Origin: an uncultured Eubacteriales bacterium
GTDB lineage: Bacteria; Bacillota; Clostridia; Lachnospirales; CAG-274
Length of the DNA stretch: 64,000 bases
Assembly: GCA_949738935.1 (NCBI GenBank)
Contig: CATJCJ010000307.1
Location: forward strand, 33,753 to 97,752
Reading direction: 5' to 3'
Within the stretch, counting starts at the first letter, position 1. Each line of letters begins with the position of its first letter. Positions 53,989 through 64,000 of the stretch are shown here, in pieces. A program made the position numbers and the translations under genes. Under the pieces are notes generated by a model that was not told the DNA's origin, did not search any database, and was given only the letters and a program-made list of their open reading frames with translations.

Positions 53989-54264
53989 TTATCCACATAA
54001 AATTGAATTTGAAATAGGCTTGAAAAGCGTTATCAACAAAGTTATCAACATATCCACTGTTAATAAGTTATGAATAATTAACAATATTGTTGAAATATTG
54101 TAGAATAAATGTGAAAAAAATGTGAAAAAAATGTTTATAAGTCAGTTTTGGACAAAAAACACAATATATTGTGCGAAACTTAGATTTGTTTGCGGATATA
54201 TAGTATATTTTTTCATAAAATGGCTGTGGATTTAAAAAAGTTATCCACATAAAATTGTGGATAA
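53989..54264. promoter_or_regulatory. DnaA-box cluster flanking an AT-rich tract
   Basis: Perfect TTATCCACA boxes at 53989-53997 and 54241-54249, plus an inverted one (TGTGGATAA) at 54256-54264. One-mismatch TTATCAACA boxes at 54030-54038 and 54042-54050. Weaker boxes at 54051-54057 and 54225-54233. The intervening sequence is very AT-rich and includes AAATGTGAAAAAAATGTGAAAAAAATG. Confidence 0.7.
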
Positions 54265-54280
54265 CGTGGAAAAGTGATAA

Positions 54281-54321
54281 AAAAACGCTGATTTATTTTA
54301 TAATAAATCAGCGTTTTTTTA
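54281..54321. terminator. bidirectional intrinsic terminator
   Basis: AAAAAAACGCTGATTTAT-TTTATA-ATAAATCAGCGTTTTTTT. Confidence 0.75.
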
Positions 54322-54415
54322 TGTACAGAGACGGCGTAATGAAATTTGTAAGCAAGGCTTACCGCCGTTTTGCAAGATGAGCGGGGAGTTAAAAATAGCA
54401 GCCTCCCGCTTGATT

Positions 54416-54631
54416 AAATTAACGTGAGTTCGATGAAATTTTATAATTAATGGAACCTTTTTCTATCGCAAAAAGGTTCCAAACCTCCAAAAATGCTCTT
54501 GAAGCATTAAAAACCTTGAGGTTTCACCTCAAACTCCACAAACTTTTTGAAAAAAGTTTGACAAAAATCTTTGTGCGAAACTACGTTTCGCTGATTTTAC
54601 TGTTATTTCTCATCGAACTCACGTTAATTTA
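54416..54631. repeat. MITE-like element with 21-bp terminal inverted repeats, hosting a family D copy
   Basis: AAATTAACGTGAGTTCGATGA ... TCATCGAACTCACGTTAATTT. The interior contains further hairpins and the family D copy at 54514-54593. Confidence 0.75.
54514..54593. repeat. family D intergenic repeat, copy 4 (inverted orientation)
   Basis: CCTTGAGGTTTCACCTCAAACTCCACAAACTTTTTGAAAAAAGTTTGACAAAAATCTTTGTGCGAAACTACGTTTCGCTG. Confidence 0.85.
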
Positions 54632-54652
54632 TGAACTTTTCCCAAGAACGCA

Positions 54653-54691
54653 AAAAAACCTGAAAATTCCCATTCTAAGGAATTCTCAGGG
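54653..54691 (-). terminator. intrinsic terminator (minus strand) about 310 nt downstream of the 55004-55636 gene
   Basis: The minus strand reads CCTGAGAATTCC-TTAGAATG-GGAATTTTCAGG followed by TTTTTTT. Confidence 0.65.
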
Positions 54692-55003: not shown

Positions 55004-55636
55004 TTATATAATAAGACGTCCTTTTGATACAAAATAATAATATCCATAAGAAGTAGAAGCGATACGACAAGCTTCAATAACCTTGATTTCTCCCTGATTT
55101 TTCTTGTCTATATAAAAAAAACTTTCCAAATATCGTAAATTATCACTGCTCAAATCTTTAATCGGAAAAATATCAAAATATCCGTCAGACGAATCCACTC
55201 TGTAAAAAAATTTATTTTTATCATCAGCCTTTAAATCTTCCATAACTTTATCTCCGCTGCTATAATTAAGTTTTGTTTTCAAAAACCTTCTGTCAATTTT
55301 TCCAAGATTAAAAAACTTGACATTTTCTTCTGTTTTCTCATTACTTATAACATTTTCCTCTATCTTTATTTTTCCGTCTCTAATCAAATGGGAATTATCT
55401 TTATTTTTTTTTAACTCTCTTATCTCAATTTTTATTTTTAAAAGTTCCTCTTCCCTGTCGCTTATAATTTTTTCTAATTCCTCTATTCTATTAGTAAGTA
55501 AATCAATTTGATTGTTTTTAAACTTTTCAAATTTTTCATCCATTCCTATTATTATTGAACCCACTATTTTTTTTATATCTTCACGAAAATAATCAAATAA
55601 TTCTTTTTTTATCTCTTCCGCGTCCTTTTCGTTCAA
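55004..55636 (-). CDS. coiled-coil protein whose C-terminal domain is shared with the 56070-56942 product
   Basis: TTG start 10 nt after GGAGG. The N-terminal half is heptad-like (LLTNRIEELEKIISDREEELLKIKIEIRELKK). The C-terminal ~90 aa (FFYRVDSSDGYFDIFPIKD...RYLESFFYIDKK...IEACRI...YGYYYFVSKGRLII) aligns with the C-terminus of the upstream membrane protein. Confidence 0.6.
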   Translation of the reverse strand: MNEKDAEEIKKELFDYFREDIKKIVGSIIIGMDEKFEKFKNNQIDLLTNRIEELEKIISDREEELLKIKIEIRELKKNKDNSHLIRDGKIKIEENVISNEKTEENVKFFNLGKIDRRFLKTKLNYSSGDKVMEDLKADDKNKFFYRVDSSDGYFDIFPIKDLSSDNLRYLESFFYIDKKNQGEIKVIEACRIASTSYGYYYFVSKGRLII

Positions 55637-56069: not shown

Positions 56070-56942
56070 TTATTTAAAATAAACCGTACCCAATGAGATA
56101 ATATCATATTTGCCAAGCATACTTTCCTGTAATATACATGGCTCAACACTATTATCCTGTCCTTTTGCGACTTTAAAAAAGCTTACAGATAAATATCTTG
56201 ACCTCATTCTCTCATCAATAATAACATTTTTTGATGGATAAATCTCATATTTATTGTTTCCACAGTTTAAAGCATAAAATATACCGTTTGGCTTCTTTTC
56301 AAGTTGGTTTCCATATTCGCTAAAACTACATTCCGTCCCATTAAGCTCTTTAGGAAAATCTCCATGATTATTTAAATATAAATTATACTTTTCTTTAATA
56401 GTAAAATATTTAGCTGACTGTAAAGTGTCTAAATCTTTTCTATCAGCTTTTCCCGATTTTAAGTTTTCCTGTTCTTGTCTAAACGTGTTGTTTGACAAAT
56501 TAGATACATCTCTATCCATTCCATAAAACTTATCGTCGCTATCCTTTTTTAACTTGTCTAAATTATTTTCAATATAATCAATTTTATCTTTCAGCGTATC
56601 ATAATCTTTCTTAAGAGAATTAAAACTCACTCTCAGCTGTTTAAAATAATAACGATAATTATCACCAATTCTTCTGAGCATAATAAAAATAATCACAAGA
56701 AAAACAATTACAGCCGCTAACATTACACACAATACTGAAAAACTTATAATACCACTAACAGAATCAAATGAGAAAATAGGAGAAATAGCCGAGGATGTTG
56801 TGGAACTTTCAATTGCGACGGAACTTTCAATAAAGCTTTCAACCTCAGCGAAAGCTTTTTGAGTAAACATAGAGGATATTAAGCCTAATATGAAAATCAT
56901 TATCAAAATATTTTTTAAAACATTTTTTATATAAATACTCAT
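56070..56942 (-). CDS. bitopic membrane protein: signal/TM, second TM, coiled coil and the shared C-terminal domain
   Basis: ATG at 56942, 9 nt after GGAGG and 3 nt after the upstream TGA. It has N-terminal hydrophobic segment ILIMIFILGLISSMF..AFA and a second TM, FSVLCVMLAAVIVFLVIIFIML. The coiled coil reads LKKDYDTLKDKIDYIENNLDKLKKD. The C-terminal domain is IFYALNCGNNKYEIYPSKN...RYLSVSFFKVAKG...VEPCIL...GKYDIISLGTVYFK. Confidence 0.65.
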   Translation of the reverse strand: MSIYIKNVLKNILIMIFILGLISSMFTQKAFAEVESFIESSVAIESSTTSSAISPIFSFDSVSGIISFSVLCVMLAAVIVFLVIIFIMLRRIGDNYRYYFKQLRVSFNSLKKDYDTLKDKIDYIENNLDKLKKDSDDKFYGMDRDVSNLSNNTFRQEQENLKSGKADRKDLDTLQSAKYFTIKEKYNLYLNNHGDFPKELNGTECSFSEYGNQLEKKPNGIFYALNCGNNKYEIYPSKNVIIDERMRSRYLSVSFFKVAKGQDNSVEPCILQESMLGKYDIISLGTVYFK

Positions 56943-56944
56943 AA

Positions 56945-59900
56945 TCAAATACCTCCATTATTTCGTTTACCTCGTAAAATCTCTAAAATAGCCTGTATTC
57001 CAATAATAAATGAAGGATCAACTTTATGAGCGTTAGCGTTTAAGTTTACAATAACTTTCATTCCCTCATAAATATCAAGCCAATCATCAGCGTTTAAATC
57101 AATTATCATTTTCTTATCACCGTTAAATATTTTTCTATTAACAATATCGACAAACTTTTTAAGATTTTCAAGTTTAGGTGATATTTCAAAGGTATATTTT
57201 AAATTTTGCTCACCGCTGTCAGCGCTGAAATAATCAATATATTTTGAGTTTTCACTCAATTTAAGGTCATAATCAGGACCTATATCAAAGTCCTTGTTTT
57301 CATATCGGACAAAGACTTTTTCCCCGTTATACATTTTTTCCGTATTATCAAACTCAATATTGTCAATATCAATACGGCTTAATTTCAACAATCCTTTCGA
57401 CGCTTCCGTTTTAAGATTGTTTTCATTAAGCGGCTCAATATGAATATTTATTCCCAGTTCATCAGATAATACCTTTCGCATATTTGTAATATATCTTTCA
57501 CCAACCCAATTATACATCTTTGAGCCGTTTCCAGCAAAATACAAATTAATATCTCTTGAACCGCTCACACTATCCTTAACAAGCTCAAGTGATTTGACAG
57601 AATAATACATTATGCCAAAAAATCCAAGAACAAGCTCTTGTTTAAACGGAATAAGCTCGTCGTTATCTCTGCCGTCAACAAAAGATTTTATTTTATCGCC
57701 AAATTTAAATATAGCCGGTTCAATATCTGTTCTAAATCTTCTCATAATTCTATCTCTTCCGTCAAAGTTTCCGTTTATAGCCTTAATAGCCTCGTCTATA
57801 GCTCTTCCATATGTCGCTCTGTTAAGCTCGCTGATACTTTCCTGTAAAACTGTATAGCTTTCCTCGTTAGTATCGCTCATGATAAGCTCGGCAATAGAAG
57901 CTAGGAATATAAGCCTCGAAGCTATATTAACAGATACCTGTATAATATTTTTCGGAGTATTACCCTCAATAACTTTCCAAAATGAAATATCAGTTGAACC
58001 TCCACCAATATCTATACAGCCATAAAGCATACACCTCGATGATAACGCCTGCTCCTGAAAAAACTTAGCGGAAACAATACTTTCCGAACAATACTGGCTG
58101 CCGTTTGAGTTAAATATAAAAGCGTTTCTGTCGCAAGATTCCCTAAGAGAATCTATTACCGATTTTGTAATATTTTTAAACTCATCAAACGATTCCTGCC
58201 TTAAAGAAGTAGGATAAGAAAATTTCCATGTAAATTTACAAGCCTGCTTTTGATAAATAAGGGCGTATACAATATTTTTTATAATTTGGCTCAAATAAGC
58301 TTTTAGCGCTCGTTTGTTGTCAGCCGTAGTTCCCCATTTCATTTCAGTTTCAATACAATCGTTGGCGCTTAGCTCAATCTCATAATCAAAAATAACATTA
58401 CCTATAGAAAACAGATTCTTAGCGTCTGCTGTTTTTTTACTTGAGTTATTCTGATAAATACTCGGATACGCCTTTTGGTTATAATAACGATAAGGCAAAA
58501 AATACGCTATATTATCGTCTATGTAATTGGGATTATTATAAATAACCTTGAGGCCATTGTCATCCATTTTTCCAACGCAATCAACCGGCTCAAGAATTCC
58601 TCCCCTTTTTTCCCTAAATTCATAAAGTTTACCAAATTCAATAAATTCTGAATTTTCCCCAAAATTGTCGGTTGTGTAAAAAGCTACCGTTGAGGTTGTA
58701 CCAAAATCTATGGCTACATTATAAACAACTTCTGAATTTGGGTTTACAATAGTCTCATTAGGCTTTGGAAGTATAAAAGCTCCAAGCTCTACCCCGTTCG
58801 TTCCGTCAAGAGATACTTTTTTAAATATAATATGTGTCGGTACATCCTCACATTTATAAACCAATCGTTCTCTTTTATCTTTGCTGTACGCTAAATCCAA
58901 ATCAAAATTATTATCAGCTATTATATCCTCAACCATGATTTCCGCGATATATTTAAAATCCACACTCTGATTTGACGGCATAGCCTCATAAACATAATAC
59001 TCATTCCATAAGTTAGCACCTAAAATATTATTCTGCGCTTTAATTTTTTGATACGGCCAAATAAAAACAGAAGGTATATCAACGTCAAAAATATCAATTA
59101 TACTCTCACCTGAATACTCATGTTTAATATGTAGCTGTTTATATGTTCCTTTGCCGTTTACCTCTTTATAAATGGGAAACACAACATGAAATCTGTAAGT
59201 TCCGTCAACAATTTTCTCAAGTTTGATTTTTATTTTATCTTTATTTTCATCTGAGAAATTACCGCTGAGAATTTCATCAATTCTCACGTCATAATTAATG
59301 TTATATGGCTTAATACGCTCAAAAATATTATTTTTTATAGGCCATATAACATATTTCTCATATCCGCTGTCCTCGAAAGAATCGGTAAACTCTGAAACTT
59401 TCGTACCCGTAAAACAATTAATTAAACATAAATCATCAAGGAAAATATCATCCTCACTAAAAAATCCCGTATTAACATCCATTTTTATATTATTTCTGCT
59501 TAAAAACTCTTTAAGCTCCGTTGATAATTCCTCAACAACATATAAAGGCTTGTCACTTCTTCCCGTATAAACCTGAATTAAAGGTTTAACGGCGTCAACG
59601 TTTATATTTGGATAAATATACTCAAAAACCTCGCTTATTTTTGATACATTTCCATCAAAGTTAAATAAAAAATCAATGAACCTATTTTCATCAAGGCCCC
59701 GCGCTTTTAACAGTTCTTCTTCTCCCGCCTCAGAAATAGCTTTATCAAGGTCCTCAATAAAATCATTAATAAAACCACAGGCTAAAGTTATTAAGTTATT
59801 TTCCTCCAGAATATTTGTTCTTAAAATTCTTTCTATACATTCAAGCCACTTTCTCATGTATAAATATTGAATACTGTTCTTCGTTATAAAAGGAATAGGG

Positions 59901-60550
59901 TCAATAAAATCAATCCTTTTATTAATGGTTCCCATAATTTCCTTTTCACAGAGTATTTTAACAATATTTGAGCTATCATAAGAATACATGGGACATACAA
60001 GACCTGAATTTGATAAAACCCCAATATTTTGTGTCTCGCCCATATTCGCGCACTCTATAAAAACAAATTCGTCCCAGCAAGAACTATCGCCAAACAATTG
60101 GCTGTTTGGCTTTAAATAGATCAAATTTCTATAAAACTTATTAACATTATTCTCTGAATATTTAGCGCTTAAATCTACTTTATGAAAATTTATCTCCAAA
60201 TCAATAAAATCCTTTAAAGCGATAATAGTGAGTAGCCCTCTCCATTGATTAACAGCGTCCTCATGTAACTGCCCAAAATCATCGGAAACCATAATAGTGT
60301 CAAATGAAATAATAGAAGCCCATGGAGAAGGTACTGAAATTTCACTCCTGTTTTTTATTATCGTCTTAGCGCCGTTGTCAGACGTCTCAAGGTCGCTCGC
60401 TATATTTCTCAAAGTTGATACCGCGTTATAAGAACCGCCTCCGGCCTCTCCTAAGGAAGAGCCGTCTGTCACCGGATTAACGGCGAGATTTGGATTTTTC
60501 CCGTTTCTTAAAGCGTTACTTGTTATATAAGTAAATTTTTTCCCCGCCAT
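56945..60550 (-). CDS. giant (~1200 aa) protein: unknown N-terminal ~600 aa plus a C-terminal actin/Hsp70-superfamily ATPase-like domain
   Basis: Phosphate-1-like 'VAIDFGTTSTVAFY' (DFGTTSTV is encoded at 58685-58708). Phosphate-2-like 'CIDIGGGSTDISFW' (57983-58012). Adenosine-motif-like 'NLYFAGNGSKMYNW'. The ATG at 60550 overlaps the upstream stop (TAATG); the ORF-track start at 60574 is an alternative. Confidence 0.8.
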   Translation of the reverse strand: MAGKKFTYITSNALRNGKNPNLAVNPVTDGSSLGEAGGGSYNAVSTLRNIASDLETSDNGAKTIIKNRSEISVPSPWASIISFDTIMVSDDFGQLHEDAVNQWRGLLTIIALKDFIDLEINFHKVDLSAKYSENNVNKFYRNLIYLKPNSQLFGDSSCWDEFVFIECANMGETQNIGVLSNSGLVCPMYSYDSSNIVKILCEKEIMGTINKRIDFIDPIPFITKNSIQYLYMRKWLECIERILRTNILEENNLITLACGFINDFIEDLDKAISEAGEEELLKARGLDENRFIDFLFNFDGNVSKISEVFEYIYPNINVDAVKPLIQVYTGRSDKPLYVVEELSTELKEFLSRNNIKMDVNTGFFSEDDIFLDDLCLINCFTGTKVSEFTDSFEDSGYEKYVIWPIKNNIFERIKPYNINYDVRIDEILSGNFSDENKDKIKIKLEKIVDGTYRFHVVFPIYKEVNGKGTYKQLHIKHEYSGESIIDIFDVDIPSVFIWPYQKIKAQNNILGANLWNEYYVYEAMPSNQSVDFKYIAEIMVEDIIADNNFDLDLAYSKDKRERLVYKCEDVPTHIIFKKVSLDGTNGVELGAFILPKPNETIVNPNSEVVYNVAIDFGTTSTVAFYTTDNFGENSEFIEFGKLYEFREKRGGILEPVDCVGKMDDNGLKVIYNNPNYIDDNIAYFLPYRYYNQKAYPSIYQNNSSKKTADAKNLFSIGNVIFDYEIELSANDCIETEMKWGTTADNKRALKAYLSQIIKNIVYALIYQKQACKFTWKFSYPTSLRQESFDEFKNITKSVIDSLRESCDRNAFIFNSNGSQYCSESIVSAKFFQEQALSSRCMLYGCIDIGGGSTDISFWKVIEGNTPKNIIQVSVNIASRLIFLASIAELIMSDTNEESYTVLQESISELNRATYGRAIDEAIKAINGNFDGRDRIMRRFRTDIEPAIFKFGDKIKSFVDGRDNDELIPFKQELVLGFFGIMYYSVKSLELVKDSVSGSRDINLYFAGNGSKMYNWVGERYITNMRKVLSDELGINIHIEPLNENNLKTEASKGLLKLSRIDIDNIEFDNTEKMYNGEKVFVRYENKDFDIGPDYDLKLSENSKYIDYFSADSGEQNLKYTFEISPKLENLKKFVDIVNRKIFNGDKKMIIDLNADDWLDIYEGMKVIVNLNANAHKVDPSFIIGIQAILEILRGKRNNGGI

Positions 60551-62091
60551 TAATTCTCGACCTCTCTTCCGCATAATTCCATAACATCACGCATAAAAAC
60601 AGTAAACGTAGTCATACTGTCGGTTATGGGTTTAACCGTATTGGTAGCTAATTCCTCTATAATTCTCTGACCTGTATAACGCTTATTTTCGGATTCAGGA
60701 CTCTCATTAAAAACAACCGTGGCCATGTTTTCAAGTTCTCTAAATTTATATCCAGTAAAACCGCATGATACAGTCTCCGGATTATATAAATTTCCATACA
60801 TATCGCTGACGTTAAGCCATTTTACCTTACTGTTTATTTTGTAATCAAATATTCCCGAATCATCACGAATATTTCCTGAATCATTTGGTAGTATAAGCTG
60901 GCTCCAGATCCAAGACAAATATTCCTCACAGTAATCTTTTAAAATCACATTAAAATTATGGCTTTTCAAAAAATTTCTTCCATAAACAGACTCATAATTT
61001 TTAAGCCAGCCAATATTTTTTTTTCTGTTTTCAATCATATCGCTAAGAAGTTTTGTGTACAGACTTGAGAATAAAAAAAACGTTGACATTTTTCTCACTA
61101 TATTAGCGTTTTTAACAACATTATTTAAAGTTTCAGGAATTATATACTCATCAGCCTTTTGTTCAATAACATAAAATTTAGTCCTAAAAGTATCGTTTTT
61201 AGGAGCGACTAAAAAATCAAATAATGTGGCGGCGGCGTAAGTTTCTATATAATGAGGCTTATTTTTCTGCTCTCCCCCGCCCTCAGAATAAGGAACATTC
61301 ATAAAATTCTCCTCATTCTCACCAATAAAATACATAGTCCTGAATATATCGTCAAAACCCTGAGACTCATAAAATGATAAAGCCATTTTCACTTTTGAGT
61401 TAAATGTTCTCCAATTTATATTTAAAGAGGTTTTCTCTCCTTGTTTTCCGACAGGCCTAAAATATGGCATAACCAAAACCGCCCCAATAGGAACATCCTC
61501 TTTAATATTGTTCTTTATAATTCTGGCTATCGTAGGTATTCCCGAAGCTCCCGTCCCGCCGAAAACCGAGCCTACTATAAATATTTTATCTCCATCTCCG
61601 ATATGCTCAAAATATCTTTCCCAAACTTCTGAGAATTTGTGATTCTCACCTAAAATATTTAACGAAGTGAAATAAGAACCTATAGAAGTATGACCATAAA
61701 ATCCCTCGTTGAGTTTTTTGCTGAGTTCCTCTTTTGTATAAAGAAACTCAAGAACATTCTTAGCGTCGTCGTTTAAATTAAAATCCCCGATATGGCCTCT
61801 CATATCGTTATCATTTGAGTCCAAAGGCGACCAGTATAGCCCCCCGTCTTCCTTATAACAGCTCACAAGAGGCAGATCAGTAAGCTTTTGAAGAGCTTTG
61901 TACTTTGAGTATAAACTTCTGAGTCCGTTCATATCCCCGTTATTTCCATCAGAATCTATACACATAACCTTATAATTGTCAAATGATTTAATTCTCTCGT
62001 CATCAAACCCTCCCGAAGCCAAAAGGTGAAACAACGCTCTCATAACTCTTGTTCCGCTTCCTCCTATAGGAAGTATATAACAAGTACTCAT
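60550..62091 (-). CDS. divergent tubulin/FtsZ-superfamily GTPase-like protein (513 aa)
   Basis: T1-loop-like N-terminus 'CYILPIGGSGTRVMRAL'. G-box/T4-like 'KIFIVGSVFGGTGASGIPTIARII' (GGTGASG is encoded at 61540-61560), compared with the tubulin signature GGGTGSG and FtsZ GGGTGTG. A GGAGGGG RBS is present. Confidence 0.75.
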   Translation of the reverse strand: MSTCYILPIGGSGTRVMRALFHLLASGGFDDERIKSFDNYKVMCIDSDGNNGDMNGLRSLYSKYKALQKLTDLPLVSCYKEDGGLYWSPLDSNDNDMRGHIGDFNLNDDAKNVLEFLYTKEELSKKLNEGFYGHTSIGSYFTSLNILGENHKFSEVWERYFEHIGDGDKIFIVGSVFGGTGASGIPTIARIIKNNIKEDVPIGAVLVMPYFRPVGKQGEKTSLNINWRTFNSKVKMALSFYESQGFDDIFRTMYFIGENEENFMNVPYSEGGGEQKNKPHYIETYAAATLFDFLVAPKNDTFRTKFYVIEQKADEYIIPETLNNVVKNANIVRKMSTFFLFSSLYTKLLSDMIENRKKNIGWLKNYESVYGRNFLKSHNFNVILKDYCEEYLSWIWSQLILPNDSGNIRDDSGIFDYKINSKVKWLNVSDMYGNLYNPETVSCGFTGYKFRELENMATVVFNESPESENKRYTGQRIIEELATNTVKPITDSMTTFTVFMRDVMELCGREVEN

Positions 62092-62169: not shown

Positions 62170-62634
62170 TCAGCGGAAAGGAACAAAGTCCGAACGCCAA
62201 ATTTTCGAGCAAAAAACAGTAGAGAGAATAAACTCCGCTATTTGTTCAACTATAAATAAAACAAAAGAAATAGTCGAACATGAAGTGTCCTCCGGATTAA
62301 CTCTCAAAAATAAAATTGATAAAACGGCGCCTATAATAATCGCTAAAAATAAGTATATAATCCACGCTACGCTTGAACGAAAAAAAGCTCCGCAGTACAT
62401 AGAAAATATCATTATAATAAAATTAAAAACAAACGAGGCAATAGTCCCCCAAAAAAACCAATTAAAAAAAGAATTTCCCCAATCCTGAGGGGTATATAAT
62501 AAATCTTCAGGGTAAGACGCTCCCGAAAAATACAAAGAAATAAGAAACCCTATAAGCAAAAAACATATAGCCGTAATAAGAGAAACAACCAGTCCCGTCA
62601 ATGAACTCGACCAAGGATTTTTTCCTTTACCCAT
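62170..62634 (-). CDS. small integral membrane protein (4 predicted TM)
   Basis: Four hydrophobic helices (LVVSLITAICFLLIGFLISLYF; FFWGTIASFVFNFIIMIFSMY; VAWIIYLFLAIIIGAVLSILFL; ISFVLFIVEQIAEFILSTVF). A GGAGG RBS is present, with an 18-nt gap to the upstream gene. Confidence 0.65.
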   Translation of the reverse strand: MGKGKNPWSSSLTGLVVSLITAICFLLIGFLISLYFSGASYPEDLLYTPQDWGNSFFNWFFWGTIASFVFNFIIMIFSMYCGAFFRSSVAWIIYLFLAIIIGAVLSILFLRVNPEDTSCSTISFVLFIVEQIAEFILSTVFCSKIWRSDFVPFR

Positions 62635-62652: not shown

Positions 62653-64000
62653 TTATTCCGCGTCACTCGCTTTTCCCACATAAACTGAAAAAGTGTTTTG
62701 AGTAACGTTTCTATTAATTTGATAGCCGTAAATAGAATTAAACAACGTATCTAAATTTGAGATTTTATTCGTTCGGGACCATTCTTTAACCCACTTAGGC
62801 ATATTCTCTTTCGACATAAATTGTTTTACGTTAATATCAAGTTTAAAGAAATTTCCCTCCGATTTAGGAAATTCCGCGGCGTTGTCCATCATAAAATTAA
62901 AAAGCATAGAGTTGTTCTCATCGTCAACTCTCCATTTGCCTTGGTTTTCTCCACCCTCGGCAATCTGTACCTTAATAAAGTCCTCGGCGTTCGCTCCATA
63001 TTCCACCAGCTTGCCGTCTTTCGGAATATACATTTTTGTCTCAAGCTCACAATCTAATGAGCTTAATTTAACCTCGTCAATTATATTAAAAGGCACGTCA
63101 AGCTTAAATTTTCCGGCAAGCGTTTTATCGCCGTCTAAAACAAGCGACTTCATAGCGATATAGCTTATATCGTTTACGGTAATATTTTTCGCTTCCTCTT
63201 TCTTGTTTTCATCGGCATCACTTTTAGGTGGCATAACCTGAACATATCTGTTTGTTACAGACGCTCCGCCTACATCAGCGAAATTAACAGTACCCTCTAT
63301 GTATTTATATAAATCTTTTGAGTAATAATTATCATTTATCTCAGAAAAACTTCCCTCAGTCTCATTCGTGATAGTAAATGACGGAATTTGCTTAACAGTC
63401 CCGTCTTGTGTTTTTTCCTCTTTATATTCGTATAAATAATAAGTTCCATTCTCAATAGGTTTGATATCTTTATAATTAATCCCCATTATGCCGTTATCAT
63501 TAGCGAAAATCTGATAATTAATATTTCTGACTATATCTAACTGAAGTCCACCATCCGCCTGACCTCCCTCAGAATTTTCATAAGCCGCGACATTAGGATT
63601 CTGCTTAAAATTAGATATAAATTCCGACGTTTTTTTATTAGAGCCGACAACTACTATAAAAAAAGGCCTTACCTCGGTATCGACCCCAATAATGGCTACC
63701 GCTTGATTTTTAGCTAAAACACCGGTAATAGCTGAAACCATAGAAGTGTAATCGCCAAGCTGCGTTGTAAAATCCGTGACAATAACACTAAACTCATTTT
63801 CCTTTGTATTTTCTAAAACATCTTTAACAATACTATTCGATTTTCCAGAATAACTTTTCTCATTAATTATTTTTTTTACAAAAAAATCTCCGTCAAGCTT
63901 TTCTACTTCATCCTTCACCGAATGTATCTCAAAATTTAATGAATCGTTTGTACTAAGTTCATTCGCCGTACTATACGCGGCATATACAATATTTTTAAAA
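62653..64000 (-). CDS. large uncharacterised protein, 5'-truncated by the window edge (at least 449 aa visible)
   Basis: The minus-strand frame stays open from the GTG listed at 63918 up to position 63999 (...FKNIVYAAYSTANELSTNDSLNFEIHSVKDEVEK...), so the real start lies outside the window. The visible N-proximal part (SGKSNSIVKDVLENTKENEFSVIVTDFTTQLGDYTSM...VAIIGVD) is weakly vWA-like. The rest looks beta-rich. Confidence 0.7.
   Translation of the reverse strand, partial: FKNIVYAAYSTANELSTNDSLNFEIHSVKDEVEKLDGDFFVKKIINEKSYSGKSNSIVKDVLENTKENEFSVIVTDFTTQLGDYTSMVSAITGVLAKNQAVAIIGVDTEVRPFFIVVVGSNKKTSEFISNFKQNPNVAAYENSEGGQADGGLQLDIVRNINYQIFANDNGIMGINYKDIKPIENGTYYLYEYKEEKTQDGTVKQIPSFTITNETEGSFSEINDNYYSKDLYKYIEGTVNFADVGGASVTNRYVQVMPPKSDADENKKEEAKNITVNDISYIAMKSLVLDGDKTLAGKFKLDVPFNIIDEVKLSSLDCELETKMYIPKDGKLVEYGANAEDFIKVQIAEGGENQGKWRVDDENNSMLFNFMMDNAAEFPKSEGNFFKLDINVKQFMSKENMPKWVKEWSRTNKISNLDTLFNSIYGYQINRNVTQNTFSVYVGKASDAE

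Follow-up and report, generated by a model that had tools for sequence, protein, structure and literature searches.

A predicted tubulin/FtsZ-superfamily protein lacking a T7 loop and its candidate actin/MreB/Hsp70-type ATPase partner in a conserved bacterial gene cassette

Divergent tubulin-like proteins (Pfam Tubulin_2, FtsZl1) came to light in 2010 and, to our knowledge, are still known from comparative genomics only, none of them having been characterised. Here, we analysed a candidate protein of this kind, 513 amino acids (aa) long, encoded in a tightly packed gene cassette on a 64,000-nucleotide (nt) stretch of DNA from an uncultured Eubacteriales bacterium (contig CATJCJ010000307.1, positions 33,753 to 97,752 of the forward strand; hereafter, the window). 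An element that recurs below is the T7 synergy loop, which carries a catalytic Asp/Glu for activating GTP hydrolysis by the adjacent subunit. The closest described family, FtsZl1, has neither a recognisable T7 loop nor an FtsZ C-terminal domain and was read as a membrane-remodelling factor, and inserts between loops T1 and T4 were also reported for the FtsZ-like families of that study (Makarova & Koonin 2010, PMC2875224). A second set of described systems, the predicted DO-GTPase/GAP1 conflict systems of Firmicutes and Actinobacteria, makes use of tubulin-superfamily and Hsp70-type nucleoside triphosphatases (NTPases) as multimer-forming modules, together with vWA and transmembrane (TM) components (Kaur, Burroughs, Iyer, Aravind 2020, PMC7159879).

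The 513-aa protein resembles FtsZl1 in several respects. The N-terminal ~300 aa are homologous, both proteins carry T1-T4 inserts, neither has a recognisable T7 loop or C-terminal FtsZ domain, and the operons follow a similar theme of vWA (or putatively vWA-like), membrane and, in part of the relatives of the 513-aa protein, MotB/OmpA-type genes. A profile of the family aligned by hhalign with the bona fide FtsZl1 Npun_AF098 (385 bits on PF13809), with a probability of 93.4% (E 2.6e-7; aa 1-299 against 10-294), in line with the suggestion, made in the original prediction from the DNA letters and translations, that the protein resembles tubulin-like families known only from comparative genomics. 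The differences are also substantial. A typical FtsZl1 reaches 385 bits on PF13809, versus 28 bits for the 513-aa protein. The FtsZl1 proteins sampled from the published description are ~850-1,100 aa long with a coiled coil and a helical C-terminal region, whereas the model of the 513-aa protein built with AlphaFold2 (AF2) shows no long coiled coil, and the FtsZl1 of Trichodesmium, Tery_1707, is encoded at a different locus from the ~500-aa family member of that genus (L069). This length difference and these separate loci argue, on the material at hand, that the ~500-aa family is a distant sister of FtsZl1 (Pfam Tubulin_2) and not a typical FtsZl1, and that it apparently was not part of the 2010 description. 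Furthermore, two products of the cassette described below, a giant actin/Hsp70-like partner and a 4-TM protein, were not seen among the FtsZl1-associated families consulted. Conversely, the OmpA/MotB-type partner that is frequent with FtsZl1 is absent from the window cassette and present in 13 of 44 related loci. FtsZl2 is set apart by its description, as it is proteobacterial, conserves T6, T7 and H7, has a mixed alpha/beta C-terminus and lacks conserved neighbours, whereas the 513-aa family lacks T7, has a strongly conserved neighbourhood and occurs in many non-proteobacterial phyla.

The family is large. A profile search of 1.84 billion cluster representatives returned 2,632 proteins at E<=1e-3 and 1,548 at E<=1e-30, and a scan of one genome per species found at least 514 loci. 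Length is uniform at about 460-560 aa; nearly all of the 150 best matches measure 450-560 aa and align end to end. The hosts include Clostridia, Selenomonadaceae, Spirochaetes, many Cyanobacteria, Poribacteria, Bacteroidota, Acidobacteria, Nitrospirae and others. The NCBI pipeline labels family members 'tubulin-like doman-containing protein'.

The gene and the protein features on which the assignment depends are as follows.

60550..62091, minus strand: tubulin-like gene, an ATG-started open reading frame (ORF) of 513 aa with a GGAGG-type ribosome-binding site upstream
61204..62091, minus strand: predicted GTPase domain, aa 1-296, delimited by invariant columns, the hhalign match to FtsZl1 over aa 1-299 and AF2 secondary structure
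aa 9-14: T1 equivalent, IGGSGT
aa 46-52: proposed T2 equivalent, DSDGNNG (DSD-x-x-NG)
aa 130-138: proposed T3-like segment, GFYGHTSIG
aa 174-186: T4 equivalent, GSVFGGTGASGIP
aa 208-211: proposed T5 equivalent, MPYF
Q275-x-N277 ... E283: proposed T6/H7-like segment, with a helix at aa 281-295
60553..61203, minus strand: family-specific C-terminal domain, aa 297-513 (~215 aa), delimited by DSSP of the AF2 model

An identical protein occurs on 20 contigs under the name 'hypothetical protein HFE59_07395 [Clostridiales bacterium]', and there are many full-length relatives with 22-79% identity; the gene was therefore counted as real. On its own, the 513-aa protein scored 27.9 bits on PF13809 (Tubulin_2), a borderline value given the cut-off of 27, and 24.3 bits on PF00091 (Tubulin), below the cut-off of 33. 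At the family level, PF13809 was matched by 47 of 54 relatives (best E 9e-12) and PF00091 by 25, with no other Pfam family found among the 54. The AF2 model, built on an alignment of these 54 sequences, is a confident single body (predicted local distance difference test [pLDDT] 88; predicted template modelling score [pTM] 0.92). When this model was compared with the PDB using Foldseek, the top 50 matches were all CetZ, FtsZ, tubulin/microtubule or TubZ, the best one being CetZ 3zid (E 8e-5), over 253-454 aligned columns (mostly 255-340) and with TM-scores of only 0.2-0.4. In the viral structure library (BFVD), the top matches were phage tubulins/PhuZ (E ~1e-4). Direct sequence matches to canonical proteins are weak: the family profile found only weak CetZ/FtsZ matches among PDB sequences (E 0.05-1), confined to the T4 region, and aligned with the single E. 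coli FtsZ sequence in the T4 region only, at 2% probability. The link to canonical FtsZ therefore rests on Pfam, FtsZl1 and predicted structure. Together these comparisons indicate that the 513-aa protein is a divergent member of the tubulin/FtsZ superfamily. The original prediction had made this call and had proposed to superpose an AlphaFold model on FtsZ, TubZ or PhuZ; the call is borne out, and the model does retrieve CetZ, FtsZ, tubulin and TubZ from the PDB and PhuZ from the viral library, at the low TM-scores given above.

The two glycine-rich motifs are ILPIGGSGTRVM at aa 6-17, which is T1-like, and FIVGSVFGGTGASGIP at aa 171-186, which contains GGTGASG at aa 178-184. In an alignment of 128 relatives, G10, G11, G13, S175 and G178-A182 are 100% conserved, and D46, D48, N51, G130, F131, G133, G138, P186, P209, Y210, F211, Y254, G257, Q275 and N277 are 96-100% conserved. 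Such conservation of pocket residues argues that the T1 and T4 motifs are under selection and are not chance matches. The names T2, T3, T5 and T6 follow from position and conservation. Over the same 128 sequences, which come from many phyla, T1, T2, the T3-like segment, T4, T5 and Q275/N277/E283 are 91-100% conserved, and to judge from the alignment the nucleotide pocket looks intact. The distance between T1 and T4 is ~85 aa in E. coli FtsZ and ~130 aa in tubulin; it is ~165 aa in the tubulin-like protein. Thus, the predicted T1-like and T4 G-box-like motifs are present and near-invariant, whereas the claim that they are spaced as in FtsZ/tubulin does not hold, and the extra material amounts to roughly 35-80 aa instead of the insertion of about 150 aa that had been proposed.

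An N.D..[DE] pattern occurs nowhere in the 513-aa protein, and after aa 296 no position holds an acidic residue in at least 60% of the 128 relatives. Similarly, none of the 54 members has a Pfam match to FtsZ_C or Tubulin_C. Both absences had been noted for the single protein and extend to its relatives. The in-trans catalytic loop of canonical members is missing along with the C-terminal domain in which it lies. According to DSSP of the AF2 model, aa 297-513 are mainly alpha-helical, with long helices at 331-355, 361-370 and 374-399 and few short strands, and this part is poorly conserved, only W362 and W394 exceeding 90% in the 128 relatives. The 513-aa protein thus shares with FtsZ, CetZ, TubZ, PhuZ and tubulin the GTPase-domain fold of its model, the T1/T4 signatures and its best structural matches, but differs from them in the lack of T7 and of a C-terminal beta-sheet domain and in its gene context.

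The tubulin-like gene is the third of a tightly packed unit of six genes on the minus strand, separated by 18, 78, -1, -4 and 433 nt. Its companions are as follows.

62653..64000, minus strand: gene 1, vWA-like lipoprotein (3' part; the window end cuts the 5' part)
62170..62634, minus strand: gene 2, small membrane protein of 154 aa with four predicted TM helices
56945..60550, minus strand: gene 4, the 'giant' partner of 1,201 aa, whose ATG overlaps the tubulin-like stop codon by 1 nt
57371..58753, minus strand: predicted ASKHA (actin/MreB/Hsp70-type) ATPase region, ~aa 600-1060 of the giant, delimited by invariant columns in 44-56 homologues
56070..56948, minus strand: gene 5, a 292-aa protein with a signal/TM segment, a strong TM segment at aa 72-90, a coiled coil and a C-terminal ~115-aa domain
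55004..55636, minus strand: gene 6, a 210-aa soluble coiled-coil protein that has its C-terminal domain in common with gene 5

The tubulin-like gene and the giant are coupled in translation in the window. No Pfam match was obtained for the giant. Its motifs DFGTTST (aa 615-621), K738-W739, SYP (778-780), E823, CIDIGGGSTDIS (845-856) and AGNGS (1006-1010) were followed in 44-56 homologues drawn from the genome-scan loci of the tubulin-like family; DFGT(T/S), K-W, SYP, E, C-I-D-I-GGG-x-x-D and the Gly/Asn of AGNGS are invariant or nearly so. A 44-sequence profile of the giant matched, among PDB entries, the actin-family protein 8r2n (E 2.6e-7) and MreB (2.8e-6 to 2.3e-5), followed by FtsA (4.5e-4), ParM-like ATPases (1.5e-3) and Hsp70 (5e-3). 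These profile matches and motifs identify the C-terminal half of the giant as a putative ATPase of the actin/MreB/Hsp70 type.

To evaluate how far the cassette is conserved, ORFs were called with a simple ORF caller in 84 related loci and submitted to profile searches; the 80 genome loci among them are the best-scoring subset of the at least 514. The giant lies directly downstream of the tubulin-like gene or is fused to it in 61 of 68 informative loci, that is, those with at least 4 kb of downstream sequence. The vWA-like lipoprotein is present in 47 of 57 informative loci, the small TM protein (~150 aa, its gene immediately before the tubulin-like one) in 46 of 57 and a coiled-coil protein with the ~115-aa domain in 38 of 44. 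The cassette of vWA-like lipoprotein, 4-TM, tubulin-like, giant and coiled-coil proteins is conserved across phyla. In four loci (L013, L014, L021 and L031; Spirochaetes and Syntrophomonadaceae), the tubulin-like protein and the giant form a single ORF of ~1,650 aa. The independent fusion P0163 (1,669 aa) aligned with the giant by hhalign over 1,017 columns (probability 100, E 1.4e-57), and P0194 is a further natural fusion of the two (~1,650-1,670 aa). Other long architectures in the tubulin-like family are P0193 (1,341 aa) and P0138 (969 aa).

About 30% of the relatives also carry a stator-type gene pair, with ZorA-like proteins in 14 and ZorB-like proteins in 13 of 44 informative loci. The pair at L005 scored 234 bits on the PADLOC model ZorB1 (E 3e-70) and 110 bits on ZorA2, and its identity as ZorA/ZorB is clear from these scores. 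In a full-text literature search, no ~500-aa tubulin-like protein was found described together with either a giant ASKHA partner or ZorAB. Identification of members as tubulin-like was already present in databases; what appears to be new is how the family is delimited, its giant ASKHA partner, including the fusions of the two, and its link to ZorAB.

GC content falls to 0.27-0.32 over 54-60 kb, which takes in the downstream half of the cassette and the 3' flank, compared with 0.36-0.41 around rpoBC, which is consistent with horizontal acquisition; the window itself is chromosomal and contains rpoB/rpoC, ProRS and MCP genes. Close relatives adjoin an integrase, helix-turn-helix (HTH) + ImmA/IrrE pairs and a metallo-beta-lactamase-fold gene, and the insertion contexts of the cassette are highly variable. 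Furthermore, six plasmids carry the tubulin-like family, and among 23 IMG/VR contigs with a tubulin-like relative, 20 show the giant too and 12 the vWA-like gene. By this pattern, the cassette behaves like an accessory module that is both mobile and self-contained.

These results are best explained, with a probability of roughly 60% by our own estimate, by a T7-less tubulin-fold protein acting together with the giant in a membrane-linked accessory cassette. The tubulin-like protein would bind GTP. As the self-activating polymer interface is absent, it may be a switch that depends on the nucleotide, or a co-assembly partner, in either case bound to the giant, and not a self-activating FtsZ-like filament, and any activation of its GTPase would be supplied by another surface or by a partner. 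Membrane tethering of the complex probably relies on the 4-TM, lipoprotein and TM-coiled-coil components, and the complex probably responds to events at the cell envelope; in ~30% of the versions it would be coupled to a proton-driven ZorAB stator. Less firmly, the cassette could be a horizontally mobile accessory system, maybe a conflict or anti-phage module that follows a Zorya-like logic, in which an envelope signal drives the assembly of cytoplasmic NTPases.

Several observations weigh against this explanation or against parts of it. The absence of T7 does not rule out filaments, and FtsZl1 was proposed to polymerise possibly by a novel mechanism (Makarova & Koonin 2010, PMC2875224). An AF2 model of the giant on a 3-sequence alignment was unusable (pLDDT 30, pTM 0.22), and the vWA assignment of gene 1 has no statistical support. 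The six loci that lack the giant altogether (L039, L060, L066, L068, L070 and L076) all belong to Selenomonadaceae and have at least 4 kb of downstream sequence; their tubulin-like proteins are slightly shorter (~460-530 aa), and this branch may be a degenerate or repurposed solo form. The ZorAB pair is absent from the window cassette. PADLOC gave no match for the six window proteins, nor for the giant and the vWA-like protein of the related locus L034. Finally, the 149 genes flanking 50 cassettes represent 136 Pfam families; most are housekeeping, and defence-type matches are scattered (mad3 three times, LmuA-like metallo-beta-lactamase twice, and MzaA, Cas12f/TnpB, Csx1 and RT-protease once each), so that the signal for a defence island is weak and does not demonstrate an association.

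The output of the cassette is a separate matter, for which we regard defence as a tentative proposal and a non-conflict envelope or cytoskeletal role as equally tentative, with little credence left for DNA segregation or cell division. The defence reading is drawn by analogy with Zorya and with the tubulin/HSP70 modules of the conflict systems mentioned above (PMC7159879). On this analogy, the cassette might be an undescribed, widespread immune or conflict system, in effect a new Zorya-like type, where an envelope signal received through the lipoprotein/TM module or ZorAB would trigger GTP/ATP-dependent co-assembly of the tubulin- and actin-like proteins as effector or amplifier; in this complete form we hold it to be possible but doubtful. 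The likeness to Zorya lies in the ~30% of relatives that end with a ZorA/ZorB pair and in the logic of a membrane stator with cytoplasmic partners; in the window cassette, the TM-coiled-coil protein occupies the position that corresponds to ZorAB. The difference is that no ZorC, D, E, F or G occurs among the scanned proteins, and the Zorya literature that was searched yielded no mention of tubulin-, actin- or Hsp70-like partners. Zorya types I-III were ruled out for the window, as no ZorC-G was detected and it has no ZorAB. The DO-GTPase/GAP1 systems are defined by one or two TRAFAC-class P-loop DO-GTPases together with GAP1, whereas the six cassette proteins lack a Walker A motif; moreover, the tubulin and HSP70 genes of those systems fall into separate, non-overlapping neighbourhood themes, and the tubulins there carry C-terminal coiled-coil or helical extensions (PMC7159879). 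A search for [AG]xxxxGK[ST] found no Walker A in any of the six operon proteins, and a DO-GTPase/GAP1 system was ruled out since the cassette holds no P-loop GTPase.

The rival that survives best sees in the tubulin-like protein the core that forms the filaments of a cytoskeleton, housekeeping or developmental, for membrane remodelling or for the envelope, with no conflict role; it would polymerise through a non-canonical interface, while the giant, the coiled-coil proteins and MotAB-like stators would shape or move the membrane. The same interpretation was given to FtsZl1, the closest described family, whose operons contain vWA and OmpA/MotB-type genes (PMC2875224), the cassette does have membrane, coiled-coil and stator-like components, and the mostly housekeeping flanks and the lack of PADLOC matches for the core proteins would fit. 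It is harder to reconcile with the patchy cross-phylum distribution, the plasmids, proviral contigs and integrase neighbours, the low-GC island in the window, a stator pair that matches the Zorya ZorA/ZorB models specifically and the missing T7, and on the whole we find it rather unlikely.

A cytomotive tubulin of the TubZ, PhuZ, FtsZ or CetZ type, whose GTP-hydrolysing head-to-tail filaments would move the DNA of a plasmid, phage or chromosome or constrict the cell, is much less probable still. Foldseek does match TubZ, PhuZ, FtsZ and CetZ (E 1e-4 to 1e-3) and relatives reside on six plasmids, but the family has no conserved T7 residue and no FtsZ_C/Tubulin_C, the TM-scores stay at 0.2-0.4, and the gene sits in a chromosomal region with rpoBC. 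TubZ and PhuZ are plasmid- or phage-borne, retain T7 and come with a DNA-binding adaptor, TubR, and a centromere. In the window, the neighbours are membrane and actin/Hsp70-like proteins with no Pfam match or obvious DNA-binding adaptor, although no search was aimed at TubR or a centromere. A segregation system of the TubZ/PhuZ type was rejected on the absence of T7 and of any match to the tubulin-like family in 50,697 phage genomes. We consider it about equally improbable that the protein is a degenerate pseudo-GTPase that has lost nucleotide binding, its sole role being that of a structural adaptor for the giant. The loss of T7 and of C-terminal activation elements and the fusion to the giant in some lineages would suit such a role, but pocket positions conserved at 91-100% in 128 sequences from many phyla argue for selection on the nucleotide pocket. 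The weakest rival, a Rossmann-type dinucleotide-binding enzyme behind the glycine-rich motif, which the original prediction had named as its possible refutation, was ruled out, as all of the top 50 PDB matches are tubulin-type and Tubulin_2 and Tubulin are the only Pfam families in the 54 members. Tubulin GTPase domains are Rossmann-like in topology only.

If a T7-less tubulin-fold protein does act with the giant, the family offers a practical entry point to divergent tubulins, being compact (~500 aa), with a high-confidence model and a conserved pocket that lacks T7, and partnered, sometimes by fusion, with an apparent actin/MreB/Hsp70-type ATPase in a genomic coupling that may be called obligate. 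It lets one ask whether a tubulin fold can be a partner-regulated switch instead of a self-activating polymer, and whether tubulin-like NTPases are combined with actin-like ones in a single bacterial machine; most of the functional information lies with the operon partners of the tubulin-like gene, which the original prediction had not taken up. A new type of defence is conceivable in view of the repeated ties to ZorAB-type stators, plasmids and proviral contigs; if true, no earlier bacterial defence would have rested on a paired tubulin/actin-type NTPase module. Should membrane remodelling prove to be the role of the cassette instead, then cyanobacteria, gut Firmicutes, spirochaetes and sponge symbionts would possess a prokaryotic cytoskeletal system of a new kind.

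The remaining observations concern the other genes of the cassette, its variants and its surroundings. PADLOC, NCBIfam and Pfam returned nothing significant for the window neighbours of the tubulin-like gene. The complete gene 1, read from identical contigs (L001:7898-9439), encodes 513 aa and starts ~190 nt past the window end; the 421-aa 'GTG-start' ORF at 62653-64000 is a window-edge artefact. Across 51 homologues, conservation reaches at least 90% at the lipobox Cys22 of the gene 1 product and at its MIDAS-like residues D52-x-T-x-S56 ... T140-D141. The lipoprotein has no Pfam vWA match, its profile matched TRAP vWA domains only among PDB entries, and weakly (E 0.3), and hhalign against the vWA protein linked to FtsZl1 in Npun gave a probability of 2%. 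The vWA-like label, drawn from these residues, is suggestive and not proven. Gene 2 begins 18 nt after the lipoprotein gene, and its hydropathy peaks at aa 14-32, 65-83, 92-110 and 124-142.

Gene 6 matched the 292-aa gene 5 protein by BLASTP over the C-terminal ~70 aa (E 6e-5); lying 433 nt downstream, it may belong to a separate transcript. The ~115-aa C-terminal domain of genes 5 and 6 has no Pfam match. In the related loci it was found in 94 proteins at 48 loci, 92 of the 94 being downstream of the tubulin-like gene on the same strand, and it is often duplicated around the coiled coil, with up to five paralogues per locus in cyanobacteria.

Among the variants, four more loci (L056, L061, L072 and L085) resemble the giant-less Selenomonadaceae loci, on short downstream sequence. 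Two loci (L007:13104-14633 and L055:15133-16665) have a bona fide Hsp70 gene (PF00012, E 7e-81) and a ~700-aa protein after the giant; these cassettes would therefore hold two ASKHA ATPases. In the closest Clostridia relatives, an HTH_3 + Peptidase_M78 pair lies on the same strand shortly upstream, with an integrase nearby (L005:3612-5778, L006:4771-6001 and L012:4322-5590). The pair, of ImmA/IrrE type, is a hint of derepression in response to a stress or phage signal; the locus in the window has no such pair.

Downstream of gene 6, a consensus scan for terminators picked out one further feature.

54659..54690, minus strand: terminator-like hairpin with a 13-bp stem and a T-run, ~310 nt past the last gene

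This hairpin is a possible end of the cassette unit. It belongs to a cluster at 54240-54690 (minus strand), between the cassette and the convergent MCP gene, that accounts for 5 of the 15 terminator-like hairpins of a 10-kb scan, against a shuffled mean of 4.2 for the whole region. Finally, the minus strand between an Hsp20 gene and ProRS encodes two proteins with copper amine oxidase N-terminal-like domains (PF07833; 46063-46839 and 48368-49831), which have no connection with the tubulin-like protein.

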